Positions 2,433 through 64,000 of a DNA stretch of 64,000 nt are shown in pieces. The DNA comes from Chloroflexota bacterium (lineage in GTDB: Bacteria; Chloroflexota; DTOL01; JACQYG01). The stretch's first letter is position 1; each line of letters starts with the position of its first letter. The notes under the pieces were generated by a model that saw only the letters and a list, made by a program, of their open reading frames with translations, was not told the origin of the DNA and made no database searches. The position numbers and the translations under genes are program-made. Where the stretch lies: contig JBFMCB010000001.1 in assembly GCA_040754915.1 (NCBI GenBank), positions 4,443 through 68,442 of the forward strand, written 5' to 3'.

Positions 2433-4250
2433 GTGCTGATCCGCAAGTACATCTGGGTCATAGCGTGCGAACTCACCTTTCTGGCAGTGGCCCTATCTTC
2501 AGCCGCGTGGGCCTGGCGTTGGCTGGAGTCGGTGGGCGACTACCGGCCTCCTCTGCGCAGTCGGCCCTCCTTGCAAGGGGCTACCACCCCCGCCGTTCAA
2601 CAGGTGGTACTGGTGGTGTTGGACGGATACGAACCCAAGGTAGCTGAGGCTGCAGGCTTCTTGCCCGACTGGCCAGCGAAGGGTGGTGCTTGTCGCCTGA
2701 GTTATCGGTACGGCGCAGGCTATTTTCCTCCCTGGCTTCCTCTGGTCACCGGTGCTACGGTCGAGTTTGGCGGTGCCGGCAATTGGAAAGGCGTTCTGAA
2801 GAGCGGGCTCCCGGGGCCCTTTGGTTATAGCCTCCCGGGTGGCCCGGGCCGGGCTCGGTCTGAGGAAAGGTTCCAGCCAACCACTATCTTGAAGGCCGCC
2901 AAGAGTGCCGGTTACCTGACTGCGTTCGTGGGGCCTCCGGAGTGGGCCGCTTTCCTTCCTGCGGAGGACGTGACGGCTAGAAATACCATAGCCGCCTCGA
3001 GCCCCCTGGACGCTTTCACGCGGGCCGGGCTTGCTGCCCTGACCGACCTGAAACCCAACCTCCTCTTAACTGCATTGCCCTATCCTGCATCGTATGGCGT
3101 TAGCTCGTCGCCGGCATCCAATGTCGGCCCGGCTGAGAGCGTGGGTGCTTATCTTCGAGCCTTGTATGACGCGTTGGATCCGGCGAACGCTGTTTTAGTG
3201 GTGATAACTATTCCACCAATGATACAACCTGGATGGCGGAACCAAGAGGGCAGGCTATTCCTGGCGGGCGAGAAGGTTCGAGTCGGGGAACATCCCGACA
3301 TGAGGCTGGAGGATGTGGCGGCTGCGGTCATTGCCTTGCTGGGGACGCCAGTGCCGGAAGGTGCTACCGGCTCGGTTCCGTGGCACTTGCTGGCGTTGGA
3401 CGAACGCAGCAAAGCGGTGAAACAGTTGGCCTTTGCTGCCCAACGGGTGGCACTGGCAGATGCATACCTTTTTAGCCTGAAGATGGGAACGTCGGAGGAG
3501 CATGTGGTAAACGATCTGGCCATGTCCAGGAGTGCGCTGAACGTTGGAAATCTGACCGGTGCTTACCGTCTGGCCACCAACGCCATGGCACAAGCTGACT
3601 TGGCCATTGCTAAGGCCAAGGCAGCTAAATTGCAGAAAGACCGTTGGAGGAGGACACCACTCGTGGCTCTGGCGCTGGTGCCACTCGTGCTAGCCATGCT
3701 CGGTGTACTGGCGGTCGTGTTGAATCGATACCGGCCGATACGCGCCCTTCGTCTCTTTCCCCCCTTCGCTCTTTGGCTGGACTCGTCGCCAGGCAGGTTT
3801 GCGGTGGCCTTGGCTGGGTTTGGCGCGGCAATCACGGCTGGCTTTCTGGCAATCCAACCGGGCTCTTCTGTTTACTGGCAGCCGGGAGGCTGGCCAACGG
3901 CCGCCCTGGAGCGTATGCTGGGCGTGTCTTCTTGGTCACTGATCCTGCCATCGCTGGCCCTGGGGTTCTACCTGTTCAGAGAAAGGGTCGAACCGGGAGA
4001 GTTTTTTCGCCTGGGGCTGCTCCTCTCTGCCTGGCTGATCTACCTGGAACTGGTGCCGCTGCTGCTCTTATACTGGCACGACGGTCTGAGGCTGACCTGG
4101 TACATCCCGGACGCCTGGGTGTTATGGTTGTGGCCGACGGCGCTCTCACTCTTGTTCGCTTCGGCGGCCGCTGCTGTCGTTGTTCCGCCGGTCGTGGCCG
4201 CTTTCTATGCCCTGGCCTGGTCATCAAATAGCGACAACCGGAAGCTGTAA
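2433..4250 (+). CDS. hypothetical membrane protein (N-terminal TM, alkaline-phosphatase-like VVLVVLDGYEP segment, C-terminal polytopic region)
   Basis: 605-codon GTG-initiated ORF without stops in 63% GC DNA, far longer than expected by chance; N-terminal hydrophobic helix, Ala/Gly/Pro-rich middle, at least 6 C-terminal hydrophobic helices. Function not recognised. Confidence 0.55.
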   Translation: MLIRKYIWVIACELTFLAVALSSAAWAWRWLESVGDYRPPLRSRPSLQGATTPAVQQVVLVVLDGYEPKVAEAAGFLPDWPAKGGACRLSYRYGAGYFPPWLPLVTGATVEFGGAGNWKGVLKSGLPGPFGYSLPGGPGRARSEERFQPTTILKAAKSAGYLTAFVGPPEWAAFLPAEDVTARNTIAASSPLDAFTRAGLAALTDLKPNLLLTALPYPASYGVSSSPASNVGPAESVGAYLRALYDALDPANAVLVVITIPPMIQPGWRNQEGRLFLAGEKVRVGEHPDMRLEDVAAAVIALLGTPVPEGATGSVPWHLLALDERSKAVKQLAFAAQRVALADAYLFSLKMGTSEEHVVNDLAMSRSALNVGNLTGAYRLATNAMAQADLAIAKAKAAKLQKDRWRRTPLVALALVPLVLAMLGVLAVVLNRYRPIRALRLFPPFALWLDSSPGRFAVALAGFGAAITAGFLAIQPGSSVYWQPGGWPTAALERMLGVSSWSLILPSLALGFYLFRERVEPGEFFRLGLLLSAWLIYLELVPLLLLYWHDGLRLTWYIPDAWVLWLWPTALSLLFASAAAAVVVPPVVAAFYALAWSSNSDNRKL

Positions 4251-4277
4251 CGTTCTGCTAGGCACTTTCGTTATAAT
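4245..4277 (+). promoter_or_regulatory. ECF-sigma-type promoter (TGTAAC-N17-CGTT) plus overlapping TATAAT, upstream of the sigma gene at 4315
   Basis: AAC at 4248-4250 and CGTT at 4268-4271 with 17-bp spacer, the AAC-N16/17-CGT architecture of autoregulated ECF promoters; TATAAT at 4272-4277. Confidence 0.45.
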
Positions 4278-4314
4278 GGGTGAAGGCTGCCCCTTCACCT
4301 CAAAGGTAGAGGGC

Positions 4315-4842
4315 ATGCCGGAGGAAGTTGAGCTGGTGCGCCGGGCCGTGCGGCGCGAGGCGGAAGCCTTTGCCCGGCTCTACGAGCTGCATTTGGACGA
4401 GGTATTCCGCTACGTTTACTATAAGACCGGGGATACAGCGGAGGCCGAGGACCTGACGGAGCAGGTTTTCCTGAAAGCCTGGGAATCCATCGATCGCTTC
4501 CAGTGGCGGGGGACCCCTTTCAGGGCCTGGCTGTTGCGTCTGGCCCACAATCTGGTAGTTGACCGCTGGCGAGGTCGAAGGGAAACGCTGTCCTTAAATG
4601 ATGTTCAATCCGCGCCTACGCCTGGTCCGGAGGGCCAGGCCTACAAGACACTGGAGGCTCAGGAGCTGCGGCAGGTGCTCCTTAGCCTTTCGCCGGAGCA
4701 GCAGCAGGTCCTCATCCTGCGTTTTGTGGAGGACTTGAGCTACCAGGAGATCGCCTCGATCATGGGCAAATCCGAAGGCGCTCTCCGGGTGATCCAGCAC
4801 CGGGCTTTGGCCAATTTGCGAAAGGCCATGGCTGAGAGTTAG
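4315..4842 (+). CDS. ECF-type RNA polymerase sigma-70 family sigma factor
   Basis: Region 2 (FARLYELHLDEVFRYVYYKTGDTAEAEDLTQEVFLKAWE) and region 4 (LSPEQQQVLILRFVEDLSYQEIASIMGKSEGALRVIQHRALANLRK) motifs; start set at ATG 4315 (RBS AAGGTAGAGGG) rather than the track's upstream ATG 4180. Confidence 0.85.
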   Translation: MPEEVELVRRAVRREAEAFARLYELHLDEVFRYVYYKTGDTAEAEDLTEQVFLKAWESIDRFQWRGTPFRAWLLRLAHNLVVDRWRGRRETLSLNDVQSAPTPGPEGQAYKTLEAQELRQVLLSLSPEQQQVLILRFVEDLSYQEIASIMGKSEGALRVIQHRALANLRKAMAES

Positions 4843-14458: not shown

Positions 14459-14677
14459 GCGTCAATGGCGGCTATTCATCGTCCTCAATACATTGTTAAG
14501 TTCACCCTCGTGCCCTTGCCCTCACCCGCGCTTCAGGGAATAGTCCAATATCCCGGCGACGATAAATACCAACCCCCTTCACCGCTTGTTGGTTATGAGG
14601 CGGCACTTCCATGCCGGGCTGGAGATCTCTAGAAGTGCAGCCGAAAAGCCGTTTTTACCGCAGAGCCCGCTGCCTGT

Positions 14678-14700
14678 GTCCCGGAGTGCAACTCCGGGAC
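14678..14700. repeat. palindromic repeat copy (GTCCCGGAGT-GCA-ACTCCGGGAC), inner-arm version of the window's REP-like family
   Basis: Perfect 10-bp arms; same inner arms as copies at 14737, 57540, 57746 and 58621. Confidence 0.7.
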
Positions 14701-14736
14701 GAGCGCAGAGATAGAAGAAAGATCCTTGCGAGCTCT

Positions 14737-14765
14737 GATGTCCCGGAGTTCAACTCCGGGACATC
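14737..14765. repeat. palindromic repeat copy (GATGTCCCGGAGTT-C-AACTCCGGGACATC)
   Basis: 29-bp perfect palindrome, 36 bp from the 14678 copy (paired arrangement like a BIME). Confidence 0.75.
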
Positions 14766-40216: not shown

Positions 40217-40314
40217 GTCGGTTCCGCCGCCCGCACGCCTTAGAGCCTGATTAGGAGATGAGATCACTCCATAACCATTATAACACAAACTGCTGCATCT
40301 ATGCCCGCAGGCTG

Positions 40315-40342
40315 TTGACAAAAGTTCCCTCTATGGTATAAT
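40315..40342 (+). promoter_or_regulatory. consensus sigma-70 promoter (TTGACA-16-TATAAT) for the GntR-family gene
   Basis: Perfect -35 (40315-40320) and -10 (40337-40342) hexamers with 16-bp spacer, 39 nt upstream of ATG 40381. Confidence 0.65.
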
Positions 40343-40348
40343 GAATAT

Positions 40349-40370
40349 TGTATACGATATATGATATACA
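40349..40370. promoter_or_regulatory. AT-rich inverted repeat TGTATAcgatatatgaTATACA between -10 box and RBS; candidate GntR/FCD autoregulatory operator (contains GT-N-AC core GTATAC)
   Basis: 6-10-6 inverted repeat read from the sequence; FadR/FCD-type operators have a (T)nGT-N-ACn(A) core. Confidence 0.4.
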
Positions 40371-55734: not shown

Positions 55735-56514
55735 TTGAACATCGTCGTTTGCGTCAAACAGGTCCCCGATACCACGGCCGAGAAGCGGCTGGACGCCAAT
55801 CTACGGCTGGACCGGGCCAGCGTGGACAACATCATCAATCCCTTCGACGAGTATGCCATTGAGGAAGGCCTGCGCCTCCAGGAGGCCCACGGCGGTGAGG
55901 TGGCGCTGCTCTGCATGGGCACGGAATCGGCCCAGGAGACCCTACGAAAAGGACTGGCCATGGGGGCCGATCGGGGCGTGTTGGTGACCGATCCAGCGTT
56001 AGCGGGCTCCGACGCCTGGGCCACTTCCTACGTACTGGCCCAGGCCTTGAAGAGGATGAGCTATGACGTGATCCTCTGCGGCATGCAGACCACCGACTCC
56101 GGCACCGCTCAGGTGCCGGGGGGAGTGGCCGAGTTTCTGGGCCTGCCCCAACTGACCTGGGCCAACAAGGTGGAGATCTCCGATGGAAAGGCCACCATCC
56201 AGCGACAGAGCGATGCCGGCTACGACGTGGTGGAGGCACCGCTGCCGGTGGTGATCAGCGTGATCAAAGGCATCAATGAACCCCGCTATCCATCTCTCAA
56301 AGGGATCATGCAGGCCAGACGCAAGGAACTGCAAATCTGGTCCCTGGATGACCTGGGGATCAGCCAAGACATGGTGGGAGTGCTGGGCGCCAAGACGAAG
56401 GTGCTGGGTTACTCCCGGCCGGCGCCCCGGGCGAAAGGCCAGCTCATCCAGGAGGATAGCCAAACGGCAGCGACCAGGATCGCCGATTTCCTGGTCCAAG
56501 CCAGGGTGCTGTAG
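55735..56514 (+). CDS. etfB: electron transfer flavoprotein subunit beta
   Basis: TTG start after SD GCGGAGGTG; (M)NIVVCVKQVPDTTAEKRLD... is the EtfB N-terminus; 259 aa. Confidence 0.9.
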   Translation: MNIVVCVKQVPDTTAEKRLDANLRLDRASVDNIINPFDEYAIEEGLRLQEAHGGEVALLCMGTESAQETLRKGLAMGADRGVLVTDPALAGSDAWATSYVLAQALKRMSYDVILCGMQTTDSGTAQVPGGVAEFLGLPQLTWANKVEISDGKATIQRQSDAGYDVVEAPLPVVISVIKGINEPRYPSLKGIMQARRKELQIWSLDDLGISQDMVGVLGAKTKVLGYSRPAPRAKGQLIQEDSQTAATRIADFLVQARVL

Positions 56515-56545
56515 AGACGCTCAATTTACTTTAAGGAGGACTGCC

Positions 56546-57532
56546 TTGGGCACGGCGAATGTCATATGGGTCTATGCCGAGCTGAGCGGCAAGGAGCCCA
56601 AGAAGATTGCCCTGGAGCTCATGACCAAGGCCCGGGAGCTGGCCGAGGCCATGGGCGGCAGTGCCGCTGCTGTGGTCCTGGGAACCGGGGCCAGGACCGC
56701 CGCGGAGAAGCTGGCGCAGCACGGGGCCAGTGTGGTCTACGTGGCTGAGGATGAACGGTTCGGCAATGTCCTGACCACCCCCCACGCCGACGCGCTCTCC
56801 GGCCTGATCAAAGAGAAGTCGCCCCGGGCCGTATTATTCGGCGCCACTAACTCCAGCAAGGACATCGCGGCCAGGGTTTCAGCCCGCCTGGGGCTGGGTG
56901 TGATCGCCGACGCTATTGCCATACAAGTAAACGGTAACGAGCTACACGTGGTCAACCCGGCCTTCGGAGGCAGCCTGCTGGTGACCAGCACCTTTACCGA
57001 TGCCAACACCGCCTTCATCATCGCCCGGGCCAAGGCCTTTGCCGCCGAGGAGAGGCCCCAGCCACTGAAGATAGAGGAGGTAAAGCCAGTTTACACCGCA
57101 GCGCCCCAAGCCAGGATCACCGGTGCGGTGGCCCAACCGGAGGCCCGGGTCAGCCTGGAGGAGGCGAACGTCATCGTCTCCGGGGGCCGGGGGCTGGGGG
57201 CGCCGGAGAACTTCAAGCTGGTGGAGGAGCTGGCCCAGGCGTTTGAGGCAGCGGTAGGGGCCTCCCGTGCGGCCGTGGATGCTGGCTGGATCAGCTACCC
57301 CCATCAGGTAGGACAAACGGGCAAGACCGTCAAGCCCAAGGTCTACATCGCCTGTGGCATCTCCGGGGCCATCCAGCATAAGGTGGGCATGCAGACCAGC
57401 GACATCATCATCGCCATTAACAAAGACCCTGATGCGCCGATTTTCAGCTTCGCCGACCTGGGTGTGGTGGGCGATCTCCACCAGATCGTCCCGCTCCTGG
57501 CGAAGGAGATCAGGAAGCGCAAAGGGGCTTAG
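56546..57532 (+). CDS. etfA: electron transfer flavoprotein subunit alpha
   Basis: TTG start 56546 after SD AAGGAGGA (5-nt spacing); ...ANVIWVYAELSGKEPKKIALELMTKAREL; C-terminal FAD-binding region (KVYIACGISGAIQHKVGMQTSDIIIAINKDPDAPIFSFADLGVVGD). The track ORF's 5' part overlaps etfB out of context and is rejected. Confidence 0.9.
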   Translation: MGTANVIWVYAELSGKEPKKIALELMTKARELAEAMGGSAAAVVLGTGARTAAEKLAQHGASVVYVAEDERFGNVLTTPHADALSGLIKEKSPRAVLFGATNSSKDIAARVSARLGLGVIADAIAIQVNGNELHVVNPAFGGSLLVTSTFTDANTAFIIARAKAFAAEERPQPLKIEEVKPVYTAAPQARITGAVAQPEARVSLEEANVIVSGGRGLGAPENFKLVEELAQAFEAAVGASRAAVDAGWISYPHQVGQTGKTVKPKVYIACGISGAIQHKVGMQTSDIIIAINKDPDAPIFSFADLGVVGDLHQIVPLLAKEIRKRKGA

Positions 57533-57539
57533 GCCGCCG

Positions 57540-57576
57540 CCCCGATGTCCCGGAGTTGAACTCCGGGACATCGGGG
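57540..57576. repeat. 37-bp perfect palindrome CCCCGATGTCCCGGAGTT-G-AACTCCGGGACATCGGGG (full-length REP-like copy), intergenic etfA / Fe-S oxidoreductase
   Basis: Read directly; 18-bp arms. Confidence 0.8.
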
Positions 57577-57602: not shown

Positions 57603-59684
57603 ATGGGGTCGATCTTCCGCGACACCTTCTGGAACGTACCGGTGTGGGCTCAGGCCGTCCATTACCTCCTGTCCATAGCCGCCCTGCTCATTCTCAGCTA
57701 CGGCGTCTACCGGCGGGTCTCCCTCTGGCGCCAGGGCCAGAAAACCCCCCGATGTCCCGGAGTTAAACTCCGGGACATCGGGGGTTCTTTACTAGTAAAG
57801 AAGCGGGTGAAGGCCTTTCTGCTCTACGCCATCGCACAGTTGCGCCTGCTCAGGGAGAGGTATCCGGGGATAATGCACCTCTTTATCTTCTGGGGCATGG
57901 TGGTCCTCTTCCTGGGCACGGCCACGGTCACCCTGGACTATGACGTGGCCCACCTGATATTCCGGACCCAGTTTCTAACCGATGGATTCTACCTGGTTTT
58001 CAAGCTTACTTTGGACATCTTAGGCGCCTTGCTCATCGTTGGCGTGCTCCTGGCGGCTTACCGGCGCTACGTCCTCCGCCCTTCGAGGTTGGATAACCTC
58101 TGGCAGGATGCCTATCAGCTCGGGATGCTCTTCGCCATCGGGCTCATGGGCTTTCTCCTGGAGGCCATGCGCCTCGCGGCCTTTAAGCAGCCGGAGGTGG
58201 CCATCTGGTCTCCGGTGGGCTATCTTCTGGCTCAGCCCTTCTGGGGCGTCACTAAGGAGACCATCCGGCCCTACTATGTGGGAACCTGGTTCGTCCACTC
58301 CACCATGGCCCTGGTCTTCATCGCCAGCCTGCCCTACACTAAGCTCTGGCACATCGTCGCCTCTCCGACCAACATCTTCTTCCGCTCCTTGAGGCCAGCC
58401 GGGGAGCTCTTGCCCATCGAGAACCTCGAGGAACAGGAGACCTTCGGTGTGGGGAAGTTCGAGGAATTCACCTGGAAACAGCGCCTGGATTTCGATGCCT
58501 GTACCCGCTGTGGCCGCTGCCAGGACGCCTGTCCGGCCTGGGCCAGCGGCGCCTCGCTCTCCCCCAAGAAACTGATCCTGGAGCTGCAGCAATGCATGCT
58601 GGAAAAGCCCACCCTGGATACCCCCGATGTCCCCCCGATGTCCCGGAGTTCAACTCCGAGACATCGGGGGACATCGGGCTCGAAAGACCTGCACGGGAAG
58701 GTGGTGGCCGCCGACGAGCTCTGGGCCTGCACCACCTGCCGCGCCTGTGTGCAGGAGTGCCCGGTCTTCATCGAGCACGTGGATACCATTGTGGACATGC
58801 GCCGCTATCTCACCCTCTCCGAGGGGGCGGTGCCGGCGACTACCGCCACCACCCTGAAGCAGATGACTAACCAAGGTAATCCATGGGGGCTCTCCAAGAA
58901 TGACCGGCTGAAGTGGGCTGAGGGTCTGGACGTGAAGGCCATCGCCCCGGGCCAGGAGGTGGAGTATCTCTATTGGGTGGGGTGTTCGGCAGCTTACGAC
59001 GCGCGAAACCAGAAGGTGGCAAAGGCCATGGTGCGGGTGCTTAAGGCGGCCGGGGTGGACTTCGCCATCCTGGGCAACCAGGAGAGATGCTGTGGGGACT
59101 CTGCCCGGCGCTTAGGTGAGGAGTACCTCTTCCAGACTCTGGCCATGGAGAACATCGATAATCTAAAGAAATACCGTTTCCAGAAGATCGTCACTGCCTG
59201 CCCCCACGGCTACAACACGATCAAGAACGAGTACCCGCAGCTCGGCGGAAATTACACCGTCATCCACCACACTGAGTTATTGGCCCAGTTGGTCCAGGAG
59301 GGAAGGCTCGAGCTTTCCAGGCCTTTATACAAGAACATCACCTACCACGATTCGTGCTACCTGGGCCGGTACAACGACATCTTCCAGGCACCCCGCCAGG
59401 TATTGGCCGCCCTCCCCGGCGCTCTGCTCAAGGAGATGGACCGGTCTGGCGATCGGGGCTTCTGCTGCGGCGGTGGCGGCGGCCAGATGTGGATGGAGGC
59501 CAAGGTAGAAAAACGGGTGAACCACATTCGGCTGGAGGATGCCCTGTCGATCAAGCCGGACTGTGTGGGCACCGCCTGCCCCTTCTGCCTGACCATGTTC
59601 GTGGACGCGGCGAAGGTCAAGGGCATCGAAGACTCCTTACCGGTAAAAGACGTGGTGGAGCTCATCGCCGAAGCCTTGGTTTAG
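57603..59684 (+). CDS. membrane-anchored Fe-S oxidoreductase (NarI-like N-terminal membrane domain, 2x[4Fe-4S] ferredoxin motifs, two CCG/HdrD-like Cys-rich domains); putative Etf:quinone oxidoreductase
   Basis: 693 aa; 5 N-terminal hydrophobic helices; CTRCGRCQDACP and CTTCRACVQECP cluster motifs; CCG-domain motifs (CSAAYDARNQ...CCGDSA; CYLGRYN...GFCCGGGGG). Gene order acdh-etfB-etfA-FeS matches syntrophic butyrate oxidiser loci as I recall them. Contains two in-frame palindromic-repeat insertions. Confidence 0.85.
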   Translation: MGSIFRDTFWNVPVWAQAVHYLLSIAALLILSYGVYRRVSLWRQGQKTPRCPGVKLRDIGGSLLVKKRVKAFLLYAIAQLRLLRERYPGIMHLFIFWGMVVLFLGTATVTLDYDVAHLIFRTQFLTDGFYLVFKLTLDILGALLIVGVLLAAYRRYVLRPSRLDNLWQDAYQLGMLFAIGLMGFLLEAMRLAAFKQPEVAIWSPVGYLLAQPFWGVTKETIRPYYVGTWFVHSTMALVFIASLPYTKLWHIVASPTNIFFRSLRPAGELLPIENLEEQETFGVGKFEEFTWKQRLDFDACTRCGRCQDACPAWASGASLSPKKLILELQQCMLEKPTLDTPDVPPMSRSSTPRHRGTSGSKDLHGKVVAADELWACTTCRACVQECPVFIEHVDTIVDMRRYLTLSEGAVPATTATTLKQMTNQGNPWGLSKNDRLKWAEGLDVKAIAPGQEVEYLYWVGCSAAYDARNQKVAKAMVRVLKAAGVDFAILGNQERCCGDSARRLGEEYLFQTLAMENIDNLKKYRFQKIVTACPHGYNTIKNEYPQLGGNYTVIHHTELLAQLVQEGRLELSRPLYKNITYHDSCYLGRYNDIFQAPRQVLAALPGALLKEMDRSGDRGFCCGGGGGQMWMEAKVEKRVNHIRLEDALSIKPDCVGTACPFCLTMFVDAAKVKGIEDSLPVKDVVELIAEALV
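57746..57784. repeat. 39-bp perfect palindrome CCCCCGATGTCCCGGAGTT-A-AACTCCGGGACATCGGGGG located in-frame inside the Fe-S oxidoreductase CDS (encodes TPRCPGVKLRDIGG)
   Basis: Read directly; lies in the loop after the first TM helix; reading frame uninterrupted. Confidence 0.8.
57785..57802. repeat. CTAG-centred perfect palindrome TTCTTTACTAGTAAAGAA (copy 3 of 3), in-frame inside the Fe-S oxidoreductase CDS immediately after the REP-like copy
   Basis: 18-bp perfect palindrome abutting 57746..57784; encodes SLLVKK. Confidence 0.6.
58621..58678. repeat. about 58-bp nested palindrome (CCCCCGATGT + CCCCCCGATGTCCCGGAGTT-C-AACTCCGAGACATCGGGGG + ACATCGGG) in-frame inside the Fe-S oxidoreductase CDS between the two ferredoxin-type Cys motifs
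   Basis: Outer-arm unit CCCCGATGT duplicated; one arm mismatch (CCGAG vs CCGGG); encodes ...DTPDVPPMSRSSTPRHRGTSGS... Confidence 0.8.
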
Positions 59685-59706
59685 AGGCTCAAAAGTGTCA
59701 GAGGCA

Positions 59707-59726
59707 TCCCCGATGTCGACATCGGG
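59707..59726. repeat. 20-bp perfect palindrome CCCCGATGTC-GACATCGGGG (outer-arm-only 'minimal' copy), intergenic Fe-S oxidoreductase / acdh
   Basis: Shares the CCCCGATGTC outer arms of the long copies but lacks the CCGGAGTT inner arms. Confidence 0.7.
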
Positions 59727-59754
59727 GCGATTCTGCGAAAGGGGGTAAACGACT

Positions 59755-60966
59755 ATGGAATTCAGACTGACCACGGAGCAGGAGCTGTTCAAGAAGATGG
59801 TCCGGGAATTTGTGGACAAGAAGGTGTTCCCCCGGGCTAGAGAGATTGACTCAAGCGATGCCAATCTGCCAGAAGACATTCTTAGAGAGATGGCCGGCCT
59901 GGGCATCTTCGGCGTGACCATCCCGGAGAAATACGGCGGCACGGCGATGCCCGGCGAGGAGATGGTGTACGCCATGCTGGCGGTGCACGAACTCGCCCGG
60001 GGCGACATATCGATGTCCCTGCCGGTGTACACGCTGTTGTGCCTGGGCTGGGGCTATCTGGTGACTCGCTTAGGCACCGAGCAACTGAAAAAGGAACTTC
60101 TCCCCAAGGTCGCTGCGGGCCAGGCCTTCCTGGGCATCTGCACCACGGAGCCTAGCGGCGGCTCTGACCTGGCAAGGATCACCACGACAGCGGTCAAGAA
60201 GGGTGACGGGTACGCCCTTAACGGTGAAAAGGTGTACATCTCCGGCTGCAAAGAGGCGGCCAAGCGCGGCGGCGGCCACCTCACCCTGTTCCGCACCGAC
60301 CCCGCGGCAGGCATCAGGGGCATGACCTTTGCCTACGTGCCGGTGGACACCCCCGGTCTCGCCTGGAAGATGTACGAGGACATGGGCCGGGGCGGCCTCT
60401 CCACCAGCGGCATCATCTACAAAGGCGTGGAAATCCCCAGCTACTACGTCTTGGGCCAGGAAAACCGGGGGTTCCACGCCGCGATGGAAGGCTTCAACGT
60501 CGCCCGGACCCTGGTGTCAGCGGCATGCACCGGTGGTGCCGAAAAATCCCTGGAGATGGGTGCGGAGTACATCAAACAGCGAAACCTGTTCGGGCAGCCA
60601 TTGGCCAAGTTCCAGGGAATTTCGTTCGAGATCGCCGAGGACCGGGCCAAGCTGTACATGCTGATGAACACGCTGCTCAAAGGCGCCTGGATGATCGACC
60701 AGTTCTACCGGAATGGCAGCTTCAGCCGCAAGGAGATCAATGAGATCGTCGCCATCTGCAAGCTCACCGCGCCATCCCTGGCCCTGGACATCGTCAAGCA
60801 TGCCATGACCTACTACGGAGCCTTCAGCTTCACCAAGGACTGCCCGCTGGAGATGTGCTTGCGGGGCCTGATGTCCTACGTGGTGGGCGCCGAGGGGGGC
60901 GCGAACATCATGAAGATCATCATCGGCCGGGAGTTCATCGGCGACATTTCTGTGGCGTATCGATAA
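59755..60966 (+). CDS. acyl-CoA dehydrogenase (second paralog)
   Basis: 403 aa; IPEKYGGTAM, CTTEPSGGSDLARITTTA, C-terminal ANIMKIIIGREFIG region. Confidence 0.85.
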   Translation: MEFRLTTEQELFKKMVREFVDKKVFPRAREIDSSDANLPEDILREMAGLGIFGVTIPEKYGGTAMPGEEMVYAMLAVHELARGDISMSLPVYTLLCLGWGYLVTRLGTEQLKKELLPKVAAGQAFLGICTTEPSGGSDLARITTTAVKKGDGYALNGEKVYISGCKEAAKRGGGHLTLFRTDPAAGIRGMTFAYVPVDTPGLAWKMYEDMGRGGLSTSGIIYKGVEIPSYYVLGQENRGFHAAMEGFNVARTLVSAACTGGAEKSLEMGAEYIKQRNLFGQPLAKFQGISFEIAEDRAKLYMLMNTLLKGAWMIDQFYRNGSFSRKEINEIVAICKLTAPSLALDIVKHAMTYYGAFSFTKDCPLEMCLRGLMSYVVGAEGGANIMKIIIGREFIGDISVAYR

Positions 60967-60978
60967 ACCAAAAGCAGG

Positions 60979-61057
60979 GTAGTCCGTAGTCCGTGGTCCA
61001 TAGTCCGTTGACTAACGACCACGGACCAATGACCAATGACTAGGGACCAAGGACTAC
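60979..61057. repeat. heptamer-periodic inverted array: GTAGTCC GTAGTCC GTGGTCC ATAGTCC GTTGACTAAC GACCACGGACCAATGACCAATGACTAGGGACCAAGGACTAC
   Basis: Four direct (R)TAGTCC-like 7-mers followed by their imperfect inverted counterparts (GGACCAA/GGACTAC), immediately upstream of the fixC RBS. Confidence 0.6.
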
Positions 61058-61068
61058 ATAAGGAAACT

Positions 61069-62364
61069 ATGGAAAGGGTCGACGTAGTCATAGTGGGCGC
61101 AGGGCTGGCGGGGCTGGCCTGTGCCTACGCCCTGGCTGGCAATGGATTGGACGTGATGGTGGTGGAACGGGGCGACTACCCGGGTGCGAAAAACGTTTCG
61201 GGTGGCCGCCTCTACCTGGGGCCCGTGCGCCCCTATCTGCCGGAGGATCTCTGGGACCACGCCCCCTTTGAGCGCATCGTCAGCAAAGAGCGGCTGACCA
61301 TGATGGCCGATGGCGGCTCCACCACCCTGGAGTTGTCCAGCGTTGCCTTCCGTCGTGGCACTCCGCCTCACAGCGTCACCGTGCTGCGAGGCAAGTTGGA
61401 CCGCTGGCTCGCTGACGTGGTGGCGGAAAAGGGCATTTTGATCATCCCCAAGTACAAGGTAGAGGAACTCCTGTTACAGGATGGCAAGGTATCAGGCATC
61501 CGGGCCGGCGGTGAGGACATCGGCGCGAGTGTGGTGGTGGCCGCGGACGGCGCACTCTCGTTCATCGCCGAGCAGGCTGGGTGGTGGGGCAACCACCAGC
61601 CCCGCAACTTCGCTTTAGGTTTCAAGGAGATCATCGAACTCCCGGCTAAAACCATTGACGATCGGTTTGCCGTTTCCCCCGGCCAGGGCGCAGCACAGCT
61701 TTTCTTTGGTAGCATCACCCAGGGCCTGTTTGGCGGTGGCTTCCTCTATACCAACCGGGAGAGCCTGTCCCTGGGCCTGGTGCTGGGCATCCAGGGACTC
61801 ATGGACCGCCAGCCGCCGGTGGAGGTCCACACCTTGCTGGACGCCTTCAAGGAGCGGCCGGAGGTTGTTCCCCTCATCGACGGCGGCACGACGGTCGAGT
61901 ATTCCGCCCACATCATCCCGGAGGGGGGCATTAACGCCCTTCCGAGGCTCTACGGTGACGGCTTCCTGGTGGTTGGTGACGCGGCCGGGCTGGCGCTGAA
62001 CATGGGCCTGACGGTGCGGGGCATGGACTTTGCCCTGGCCTCCGGCGTCATCGCCGGCCGGGCCATCCTGGCCGCCAGGCAGCGCGGTGATTTCTCTGCT
62101 GCGTCCCTGGCCCAGTACGAGGCGCTCTTGAAAAACAGCTTCGTTCTTAAAGATTTAGCGACCTTCAAGAAGGCCCTCCAGGTGCTGGACAACCCTCGGC
62201 TATACACCGTCTACCCTCAGGCCGTCACCGGTATTCTTGAGCAGTTGTTGACCATTGGCCCGGGGCCGAAGGGGAGATTGTCGGCGACGGTGATTGGAGA
62301 GATTAGAAGGCGGCTGCTAAGCTGGGAGACGGTGCGAGATGCCGTTGGTTTTCTGAAGATGTGA
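61069..62364 (+). CDS. fixC: electron-transfer-flavoprotein:quinone oxidoreductase FixC family (FAD-dependent)
   Basis: Start ATG 61069 (SD AAGGAAA): MERVDVVIVGAGLAGLACAYALAGNGLDVMVVERGDYPG (FAD motif); length and downstream fixX fit FixC. The track's 61036 start lies in the repeat array. Confidence 0.85.
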   Translation: MERVDVVIVGAGLAGLACAYALAGNGLDVMVVERGDYPGAKNVSGGRLYLGPVRPYLPEDLWDHAPFERIVSKERLTMMADGGSTTLELSSVAFRRGTPPHSVTVLRGKLDRWLADVVAEKGILIIPKYKVEELLLQDGKVSGIRAGGEDIGASVVVAADGALSFIAEQAGWWGNHQPRNFALGFKEIIELPAKTIDDRFAVSPGQGAAQLFFGSITQGLFGGGFLYTNRESLSLGLVLGIQGLMDRQPPVEVHTLLDAFKERPEVVPLIDGGTTVEYSAHIIPEGGINALPRLYGDGFLVVGDAAGLALNMGLTVRGMDFALASGVIAGRAILAARQRGDFSAASLAQYEALLKNSFVLKDLATFKKALQVLDNPRLYTVYPQAVTGILEQLLTIGPGPKGRLSATVIGEIRRRLLSWETVRDAVGFLKM

Positions 62365-62429
62365 GACGATCGCGAAGCAACCGGGCAAGCCAGTGAAAGT
62401 CAGTATCCTCCGTGCAGGGGAGAAACCCC

Positions 62430-62705
62430 ATGAACATCGAGGCTAAACTTGGCCTGGACGTCTTTGGGCTGGACAAAAAGCCTCACATTGCCATCGATCA
62501 GCAAGTCTGCCAGGCGATCTGCAAGCTCCGACCGTGCCTTTTCGTTTGCCCGGCACACCTCTACACCTTGGACCCAGAGGGTCGGGTCCAGGTCAACTGG
62601 GAAGGTTGCCTGGAGTGCGGCGCCTGCATGATCGCCTGTCAGGATAAGGGCCTGGAGTGGCACTATCCCCGGGCCGGCTTTGGGGTACAATACCGGTTGG
62701 GATAG
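62430..62705 (+). CDS. fixX: ferredoxin-like protein FixX
   Basis: 91 aa from ATG 62430 (SD GGGGAGA); Cys motifs CQAICKLRPCLFVCP...CLECGACMIAC typical of FixX. Confidence 0.8.
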   Translation: MNIEAKLGLDVFGLDKKPHIAIDQQVCQAICKLRPCLFVCPAHLYTLDPEGRVQVNWEGCLECGACMIACQDKGLEWHYPRAGFGVQYRLG

Positions 62706-62742
62706 ATGCTCGGGCTGCGCTGGTGACACTCCCACGACGCAG

Positions 62743-62808
62743 CAACGTTGAACAATCCTCCCGCAGGTTCCAAACCTGCGGGAGGATTAGGCTTTGGACG
62801 TTCAACGC
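62743..62808 (+). terminator. long nested hairpin after fixX (inner perfect 16-bp stem AATCCTCCCGCAGGTT-CCAA-AACCTGCGGGAGGATT; outer arms ACGTTGAAC/GTTCAACG); terminator/attenuator candidate
   Basis: Inner stem 62754..62789 read directly; followed by GGCTTTGG. Confidence 0.55.
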
Positions 62809-62867
62809 GTACCGTGGTGTCGGAGCCTCACCAGGCGAAGGCCCCGAGTTGTCTACCAAGGCATGAC

Positions 62868-63608
62868 ATGACCACAAACATATACGAGCAGTCGTGGCAG
62901 GGACGAGAGCGGGCCCGGCAGTGGGAACGGCGGGCGGATCTAGTCATCCCCAAACGCCAGGAGATCTTCAGCGTGATGGTCCAGGTGTTGCCGTTCAATG
63001 AGGAAGCACCTTTACGGATGCTCGATCTAGGCTGCGGCACCGGCTCGCTGGCGGAGGTGGCCTTGGCCCGCTATCCCAACGCTACCGTCACCTGCCTGGA
63101 CAACTCTTTGGAGATGTTGGAGATTGGCCAGGCCAAGTACGTGGACCAGACCGAGCATGTCCGTTTCCTGCTGCGGGACCTGGAGCAGCCCGACTGGAAC
63201 AACGATCTGGGCGACGGCTACGACGCCATACTGTCCTGCCTGGCAATTCACCTGATCAGCGATGATGCTAAGCGCCGCCTTTACCGCCAGGCGTTCCAGA
63301 TGCTCACGCCGGCGGGTTGTTTCGTCTCCGCGGACCGGCTGAGGGCGGCCACGCCAGCCTTGGATGTGCTGTACCATGAACTCTGGCTCCAATTCATCGT
63401 CCGCCGCACCAAAGAGGTTTTGGATAAGGACGTACCGCTGGAGACGGTGCGGGAGCGACAAAGGACTATGGATGCCAGCGCTGGCCTTAAATGCGTGACC
63501 CTGGAGGAGAACCTGGCCTGGCTGCGGGAGGCGGGGTTCCCGGTGGTGGAGTGTTTCTGGAAGGATTATCAACGGGCAGTGTTTGGGGGTTTCAAGGTAG
63601 ACAGGTGA
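62868..63608 (+). CDS. class I SAM-dependent methyltransferase
   Basis: Start ATG 62868 (MTTNIYEQSW...); motif I MLDLGCGTGSLAEVAL, post-I LDNSLEML. The track's 5' extension is translation of the hairpin and is rejected. Confidence 0.8.
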   Translation: MTTNIYEQSWQGRERARQWERRADLVIPKRQEIFSVMVQVLPFNEEAPLRMLDLGCGTGSLAEVALARYPNATVTCLDNSLEMLEIGQAKYVDQTEHVRFLLRDLEQPDWNNDLGDGYDAILSCLAIHLISDDAKRRLYRQAFQMLTPAGCFVSADRLRAATPALDVLYHELWLQFIVRRTKEVLDKDVPLETVRERQRTMDASAGLKCVTLEENLAWLREAGFPVVECFWKDYQRAVFGGFKVDR

Positions 63609-63644
63609 GCCGGGATGCCCTGCTCCCTTCGAAGGAGACGTACC

Positions 63645-64000
63645 ATGGAGGTTGTGGTCTGTATCAAGCAGGTGGTAGACTTAAAACAGGTTCGCATCAA
63701 ACGAGACACCCGGGAGCCGGTGCTGGAGGGACTGCCGCTGGTCTTGAGCGATATTGACAAGAATGCCCTGGAGGAGGCCGTACGCCTTAAGGAGAGGTTG
63801 GGCGAGGCGAAGGTCACGGCTCTGTCTCTGGGCAGCGGCAAGTTACGGGAGACCATTAAAGAGGCCTTGGCGATAGGGGCGGATGAGGCGATCTTAGTCA
63901 CCGATCCGGCCCTGCAAGGCGGCGATCCTTCCATCACGGCCAGAGCCCTGGCCGCCGCCGTTGGCAAGCTGGGCCACGTTGACCTCGTGCTCCTCGGTGA
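63645..64000 (+). CDS. electron transfer flavoprotein beta subunit (second copy, FixA-like), 5' fragment continuing beyond the window
   Basis: ATG 63645 after SD GAAGGAG; MEVVVCIKQVVDLKQVRI...ALSLGSGKLRETIKEALAIGADEAILVTDPALQG is an EtfB/FixA N-terminus; no stop before the window end. Confidence 0.8.
   Translation, partial: MEVVVCIKQVVDLKQVRIKRDTREPVLEGLPLVLSDIDKNALEEAVRLKERLGEAKVTALSLGSGKLRETIKEALAIGADEAILVTDPALQGGDPSITARALAAAVGKLGHVDLVLLG

Follow-up and report, generated by a model that had tools for sequence, protein, structure and literature searches.

The analysed stretch of DNA (the window, 64 kb in full) carries a gene cluster in which an acyl-CoA dehydrogenase gene (acd) is followed by fixC, and the spacer between these two genes contains an array of 7-nt units that can fold back on itself. 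The closest named relatives, judged by FixC, are Chloroflexota MAGs, and NCBI gives the name Chloroflexota bacterium to cluster members of the nearest FixC; an exact record look-up returned no entry for the window's FixC or ACAD, nor for P0123. The genes of the cluster and the features of the spacer are as follows:

56276-57532, etfA (Pfam-based cluster annotation)
57603-59684, membrane FeS/CCG oxidoreductase (Pfam-based cluster annotation)
59755-60966, acd (Pfam Acyl-CoA_dh_N/M/1)
60964-60966, + strand, stop codon TAA of acd (ORF list, Pfam, sequence)
60967-60975, + strand, left flank ACCAAAAGC, common to all three spacer alleles (alignment of six spacers)
60979-61006, + strand, left arm, four tandem heptamers GTAGTCC GTAGTCC GTGGTCC ATAGTCC (sequence, Tandem Repeats Finder)
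61007-61008, + strand, GT separating the two arms (fold)
61009-61057, + strand, right arm, seven heptamers of the reverse-complement type (sequence, Tandem Repeats Finder, inverted repeats, fold)
61036-61038, + strand, in-frame ATG within the array, a spurious fixC start (ORF list, homologue starts)
61060-61071, + strand, fixC Shine-Dalgarno sequence AAGGA (61060-61064) and true ATG (61069-61071) (sequence, alignment, Pfam)
61069-62364, fixC (Pfam DAO, ETFQO_UQ-bd)
62412-62705, fixX, followed by a methyltransferase gene (Pfam-based cluster annotation)

Read along the sequence, the spacer consists of the acd stop, ACCAAAAGCAGG, the left arm, GT, the right arm, AT, AAGGA and ATG, with the right-arm units running 5' to 3' as TGACTAA CGACCAC GGACCAA TGACCAA TGACTAG GGACCAA GGACTAC. 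The initial annotation had described an approximately 80-bp heptamer-periodic fold-back array between the acd stop and the fixC ribosome-binding site, and the sequence, Tandem Repeats Finder and the predicted fold all bear this out. Tandem Repeats Finder reports a period of 7 in both halves (GTAGTCC in 4.3 copies on the left, TGACCAA/GACCAAG in 4.6-5.4 copies on the right), and an inverted-repeat search finds pairings of 20-27 nt that are 73-90% complementary, in several registers shifted by 7 nt. The unit counts given earlier stand for the left arm (four, although one unit is GTGGTCC) but not for the right arm, which has seven units rather than four.

The array was also said to have no counterpart elsewhere in the window, and this proved correct. 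A degenerate three-unit pattern has six matches in the window (0.35 expected by chance), all of them within the array, and heptamer pattern searches found no array-like sequence in the rest of the 64 kb. An assembly artefact can be dismissed, since an independent metagenome contig (L129, described below) has it too. It also accounts for a false fixC start in the annotation. The in-frame ATG at 61036, which had rightly been taken for an artefact of the array, lies upstream of the start used by close homologues, all of which are 431 aa long from MERVDVV, at the position of 61069; spacer alleles that lack the heptamer array also lack this ATG.

Transcribed from the + strand, the array folds with a predicted energy of -35.9 kcal/mol (z -3.3), and from the - strand with -42.9 kcal/mol (z -4.2); on either strand, 0 of 200 shuffles was as stable. 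A GC-corrected sliding fold places the region within roughly the ten most stable distinct places of the window. The stem begins 12 nt past the acd stop and stops 3 nt short of the fixC Shine-Dalgarno sequence, the apical loop of the minimum-free-energy fold is CGUU (61006-61009), and the right arm can pair with the left in several 7-nt registers. The long imperfect hairpin of 7-bp units proposed for this spacer is thus supported by the fold. An Rfam 15 scan of 58000-64000 at E<=1 gave no family match at the gathering score; mir-325, the sole match, is a chance one, scoring 28 bits where the gathering score is 89.

Such a hairpin could be an intrinsic terminator or a transcriptional attenuator that insulates fixCX from acd, as had been suggested, and a stable stem-loop that folds significantly better than its shuffles and lies directly 3' of a stop codon speaks for this. 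However, the stem is followed by ACAUAAGGAAAC instead of a U-run, and scans for promoters and terminators found no consensus of either kind at the array. There is also no promoter-like site downstream from which fixC transcription could restart, and the fixC Shine-Dalgarno sequence follows only 3 nt past the stem, in an operon-like layout. Neither an upstream leader peptide nor an alternative antiterminator pairing was found, and attenuation through sequestration of the Shine-Dalgarno sequence is not indicated, because that sequence is unpaired in the minimum-free-energy fold. A role in termination or attenuation is therefore very improbable.

Conservation was assessed in seven contigs from related Chloroflexota, whose fixC genes are 95-98% identical to that of the window at the nucleotide level (98% in L001 and L126, 95% in L125, L127 and L128). 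The right flank, consisting of the fixC Shine-Dalgarno sequence (AAAGA in L125) and start codon, is kept in all seven, and the left flank, ..TATCG(A/G)TAA(A/C)CCAAAAGC, in all those with collinear upstream sequence available. Identity in the flanks is 95-99%, and in the spacer alignment they are identical or nearly so across alleles. Between them lie three mutually unrelated forms, and in an alignment of six spacers the allele-specific sequence begins directly 3' of ACCAAAAGC:

Allele A, the heptamer dyad: found only in the window and metagenome contig L129, among the window and the seven contigs
Allele B, a dyad of 3+3 nonamers ACCGCAGAG: L001 2290-2381, L126 5899-5990, L127 1437-1528, L128 806-897 and L382 1-46 (this last contig begins inside the allele)
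Allele C, three CAGGTAGA octamers and then a 9-bp GC stem: L125

Six of the seven related contigs thus lack the heptamer array in this spacer. The array's one other carrier, L129, has three left-arm units where the window has four, one GTAGTCC fewer, so that between strains the array gains or loses whole 7-nt units. L129 also has T for C at 61022, a change that retains a G-U pair in the + strand RNA. A conserved 23-mer from the 5' part of fixC was found in a single contig in a metagenome scan. Because allele B occurs in both the 98% and the 95% groups, the heptamer array is the derived state. The alleles do not track the phylogeny of the flanking genes either: the acd of L129 is 99.3% identical to that of the allele-B contigs, which is closer than L129 as a whole is to the window (96.9%), and the spacer allele is hence uncoupled from its flanks. 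This pattern suggests recombination within one population. In L127, allele B and fixC sit behind leuB rather than acd, which makes the spacer a rearrangement boundary as well.

A fold-back structure is shared by some of these spacers. Allele B folds with a predicted -45.7 kcal/mol (z -4.2), and an imperfect direct repeat, CGGTAAACCA / CGGTAAAGCA, flanks its dyad. We considered whether a hairpin as such is required at this site, and the spacers do not establish such a need: A and B fold strongly, but allele C does not (z -0.45), and a distant orthologous locus (L003, 58% nucleotide identity) has a 56-nt spacer with neither the array nor a strong hairpin (z -1.27). A hairpin is therefore not universally required between acd and fixC.

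These comparisons bear directly on the suggestion that the array binds a multimeric regulator controlling fixCX, either on DNA (iteron-like or response-regulator-like, as proposed in the initial annotation) or on RNA (a GGA-binding protein of the CsrA type, or one of the cold-shock type). Phased tandem units immediately 5' of a Shine-Dalgarno sequence and start codon, with several GGA motifs in the 3' arm near the former, do look the part. Regulatory roles have been proposed for heptamer repeats near start codons in Beggiatoaceae (PMC4679880), and modest reporter effects have been seen in Nostoc (bioRxiv 10.1101/2022.06.06.494920). However, six of the seven related contigs have unrelated sequence at the site and the two carriers differ in unit number. 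The periodicity is not conserved across related genomes, an outcome that had been set in advance as counting against a functional array. The window holds no second copy, Pfam annotation revealed no regulator gene in the acd-fixC cluster, the GGA motifs lie in the stem and not in loops, and in viral contigs arrays of shuffled heptamers are about as common. Judged from these sequence comparisons, the array is not a conserved regulatory site, and control of fixCX by a protein bound to it is quite unlikely. More generally, phased repeats beside a start codon should not be read as operators before close relatives have been checked.

The array is probably a slippage-prone heptanucleotide simple sequence repeat (SSR) in dyad form, similar to the short tandemly repeated repetitive sequences (STRR) of cyanobacteria and the long simple sequence repeats (LSSRs) of other bacteria. 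A single species-level population of Chloroflexota has at least three alleles of this spacer, the array being one. The array consists of tandem units at a non-coding site, shows 7-nt polymorphism and is present sporadically, as heptanucleotide SSRs are. Under this reading, replication slippage would expand and contract the heptamer units, intrastrand template switching on the quasi-palindrome would keep the two arms roughly complementary, and homologous recombination through the conserved flanks would spread the allele between strains. Transcribed as part of an acd-fixCX message, the array would form a stem-loop with several possible registers and an energy of about -36 kcal/mol. At most, this might act as a generic intercistronic hairpin that blocks 3' exonucleases, marks a processing site or decouples translation, and allele B and the hairpins in other spacers of the cluster could fill the same generic role. 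The locus offers a natural example of spacer turnover: within one species-level population of Chloroflexota, the spacer takes three unrelated short-period-repeat forms, and the window and L129 appear to capture a slippage step of 7 nt between two strains.

Slippage alone does not account for everything, as the replacement of about 90 nt is complete and its boundaries are fixed, with AAAAGC to the left and the Shine-Dalgarno sequence to the right. This clean swap could instead reflect a miniature mobile element (a MITE, REP or REPIN-like cassette) inserted in a hot-spot spacer, where it displaced allele B. The uncoupling of the allele from the flank phylogeny and the direct repeat around allele B would agree with such an insertion, and the genome has an active family of small palindromes with presence/absence polymorphism. 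Enterobacterial REP and BIME elements are likewise extragenic imperfect palindromes between co-directional genes that vary between strains and could stabilise upstream mRNA, and in these respects the array resembles them. REP elements, however, are conserved in sequence, dispersed in hundreds of copies and associated with RAYT transposases. The array, made of tandem units, occurs once in the sequences searched, which comprise the 64 kb and about 45 kb from relatives, and apart from the heptamer it shows no family consensus. BLAST of alleles A, B and C against all fetched loci revealed no dispersed copies, allele A matching only generic heptamer arrays of other phyla, and a pattern search found no copy of the allele B arm in the window. 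Nor is there a target-site duplication around allele A, and dyads elsewhere share only the heptamer with it. Finally, AAAAGC immediately precedes each of the three alleles in the alignment, and A and C share the opening AGG(G)TAG, which fits an in-situ expansion from a common seed. We consider a mobile origin fairly unlikely, and return to the slippage-prone SSR as the preferred reading.

Arrays of this kind are already known from cyanobacteria and other bacteria. Heptanucleotide repeats are the most abundant class of long SSRs in most genomes, with slippage as the proposed mechanism, according to the account of Mrazek (2007) given in PMC4679880. Intergenic TAACTGA arrays, known from Beggiatoaceae, Cyanobacteria and Bacteroidetes, differ between strains mostly by "indels in 7 nt increments" and are absent in the closest relatives (MacGregor, PMC4679880), and the GGGAATC arrays of Xanthomonas include convergent inverted pairs (Rehm et al., PMC4692102) that could form stem-loops, as the dyad of the window does. 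With these LSSRs the array shares its period of 7, sporadic distribution, intergenic bias and 7-nt strain indels, and in both cases the closest relatives often lack an array at the same site. It differs from the TAACTGA and GGGAATC arrays in its unit, in having contiguous arms that make one compact dyad, and in its intra-operon position 3 nt from a Shine-Dalgarno sequence.

The cyanobacterial STRR too consist of tandem 7-nt units at intergenic or intercistronic sites and are often able to form hairpins (PMC2670836). Several cyanobacteria have STRR hairpins with 7-bp units in the hupS-hupL intergenic region, for which roles in transcript stability or translational coupling have been proposed (PMC2670836). 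In Nostoc 7120, eight copies of GAC(C/T)AAT abut the recO start, and the right-arm units TGACCAA and TGACTAA of the window are rotations of this unit (bioRxiv 10.1101/2022.06.06.494920). Four cyanobacterial loci in our searches (L033, L043, L114 and L115) have TRGTCC arrays followed by inverted TGACNAA-type arrays, resembling the window. To our knowledge, the left-arm unit GTAGTCC is not among the classical STRR units, and we did not find it in the papers on heptamer repeats cited here. STRR also occur at high genomic density, whereas the host here is a member of the Chloroflexota with about 61% GC and one array in 64 kb. As this remains the sole heptamer array when about 45 kb of relatives' sequence is added, the species is not repeat-rich like the STRR-bearing cyanobacteria. 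In the strict sense, STRR belong to filamentous cyanobacteria with many arrays per genome, and the array falls outside that definition.

Another parallel comes from Geobacter metallireducens, for which PMC2700814 describes 49 elements of four heptamers with the consensus GGACCGG. Like the left arm, these have four tandem heptamers and a GGACC core; unlike the array, they are dispersed in many copies and also lie inside genes, and we found no report of a dyad arrangement for them (PMC2700814). They are annotated there as putative regulatory elements, unsupported by experiments (PMC2700814).

To place the array among other genomes, we searched with the four-unit pattern TRGTCCNTRGTCCNTRGTCCNTRGTC, for which we estimate about 0.3 chance occurrences in 596 Gb; the search gave at least 120 loci in genomes of many phyla. 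Hosts among the matches listed include Acidobacteriota, Verrucomicrobiota, Planctomycetota, Gemmatimonadota, Bacteroidota, Cyanobacteria, Chloroflexia, Geomonas and Streptomyces. The array of the window and these matches together extend STRR-like heptamer dyads to the Chloroflexota as well as to the Acidobacteriota, Planctomycetota, Gemmatimonadota, Verrucomicrobiota and Bacteroidota. In the 852 kb around the matches listed, Tandem Repeats Finder reports 268 arrays of period 7 and at most 31 of any other period, with diverse units. Among these matches, most arrays are not contained in an open frame: 52 of 120 lie fully inside one, compared with 1081 of 1200 random segments.

The commonest unit among the matches listed (L005-L124) is CCCTAGT/ACTAGGG, with 35 arrays. 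It contains CTAG, a tetranucleotide that is usually avoided in bacterial genomes. At least three units in tandem suffice for CTAG to create stop codons in each of the six frames.

The TRGTCC unit is not special in itself. In the viral contigs, the one collection on which shuffled-unit controls were run, the real unit was found at 51 loci and the four controls at 43, 28, 16 and at least 120, although the fourth (CCTGRT) and the real pattern overlap in part, with loci L132, L141 and L144 in common. Because shuffled units are about as frequent there, we rejected the notion of TRGTCC as a privileged heptamer; tandem heptamers as such are common.

An inverted partner arm lies within 150-200 nt in about 13% of the arrays among the matches listed, and the resulting dyads share the heptamer alone, not loops or ends. 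The order of the arms is strongly biased: of 18 dyads among the matches listed (L005-L124 and L130-L180), 17 have TRGTCC in the 5' arm and GGACYA in the 3' arm (binomial p 1.4e-4). The array of the window, with its TRGTCC arm 5', has the majority order. The shuffled-unit controls yielded 0-2 dyads per set, too few to show whether heptamers of any kind form dyads. Neutral slippage would not predict the arm-order bias, which hints at some constraint. Perhaps dyads of the form 5'-(N TRGTCC)n-loop-(GGACYA N)m-3' make up a cross-phylum class with fixed arm order, the acd-fixC spacer being a cassette-like hot spot in which heptamer, nonamer and octamer dyads interchange at fixed boundaries, but this seems unlikely to us. 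If true, a fixed arm order would imply an orientation-specific process, be it an unknown protein, a function at the RNA level or a polar template-switch mechanism. Should the bias hold across genomes, it would point to a mechanism behind bacterial heptamer repeats.

The acd-fixC spacer is not the only structured one, as each intercistronic spacer of the cluster has one of the most stable local folds of the window. Two of the palindromes in these spacers belong to a REP-like family with the core GTCCCGGAGTTNAACTCCGGGAC, often lengthened to CCCCGATGTCCCGGAGTT|AACTCCGGGACATCGGGG, of which the window has five copies against 0 expected. The palindromes are as follows:

57540-57576, perfect 18+18 palindrome in a spacer of the cluster, also a copy of the REP-like family
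57741-57789, REP-like copy
58632-58670, REP-like copy
14677-14763, REP-like copy
59708-59727, 20-nt palindrome in a spacer of the cluster, a shortened REP-like form
62754-62788, perfect 16-bp stem AATCCTCCCGCAGGTT / AACCTGCGGGAGGATT with loop CCA, between the fixX stop and the methyltransferase gene
L001 6784-6806, REP-like copy in a relative
L126 2644-2666 and 3571-3593, REP-like copies in a relative
L129 1217-1239, REP-like copy in a relative

The region at 62754-62788 folds to a predicted -56.4 kcal/mol (z -4.8), and this stem is a possible weak terminator because AGGCUUUGG comes next.

Two of the REP-like copies lie in frame within the FeS/CCG oxidoreductase gene, adding about 11 and 13 residues to its product. 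These residues are missing in some relatives: L126 lacks PRCPGVKLRDIGG, and L125 is shorter around residues 340-359. Such in-frame copies resemble palindromic elements that insert into coding sequences, for example the RPEs of Rickettsia. In L126, the oxidoreductase is called as two genes, of 62 aa (2700-2888) and 579 aa (2876-4615), and the split surrounds the site of the palindromic-element insertion in the window's gene (57603-59684); either a frameshift or some assembly effect at the repeat may underlie it.

Elsewhere in the window, an AT-rich segment at 40300-40370, a short way upstream of an ATG at about 40382, contains ttgaca...tatggtataat together with an imperfect period-7 run (consensus TATGATA, 5.3 copies, 65% matches). 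This segment resembles a promoter region more than a repeat element.
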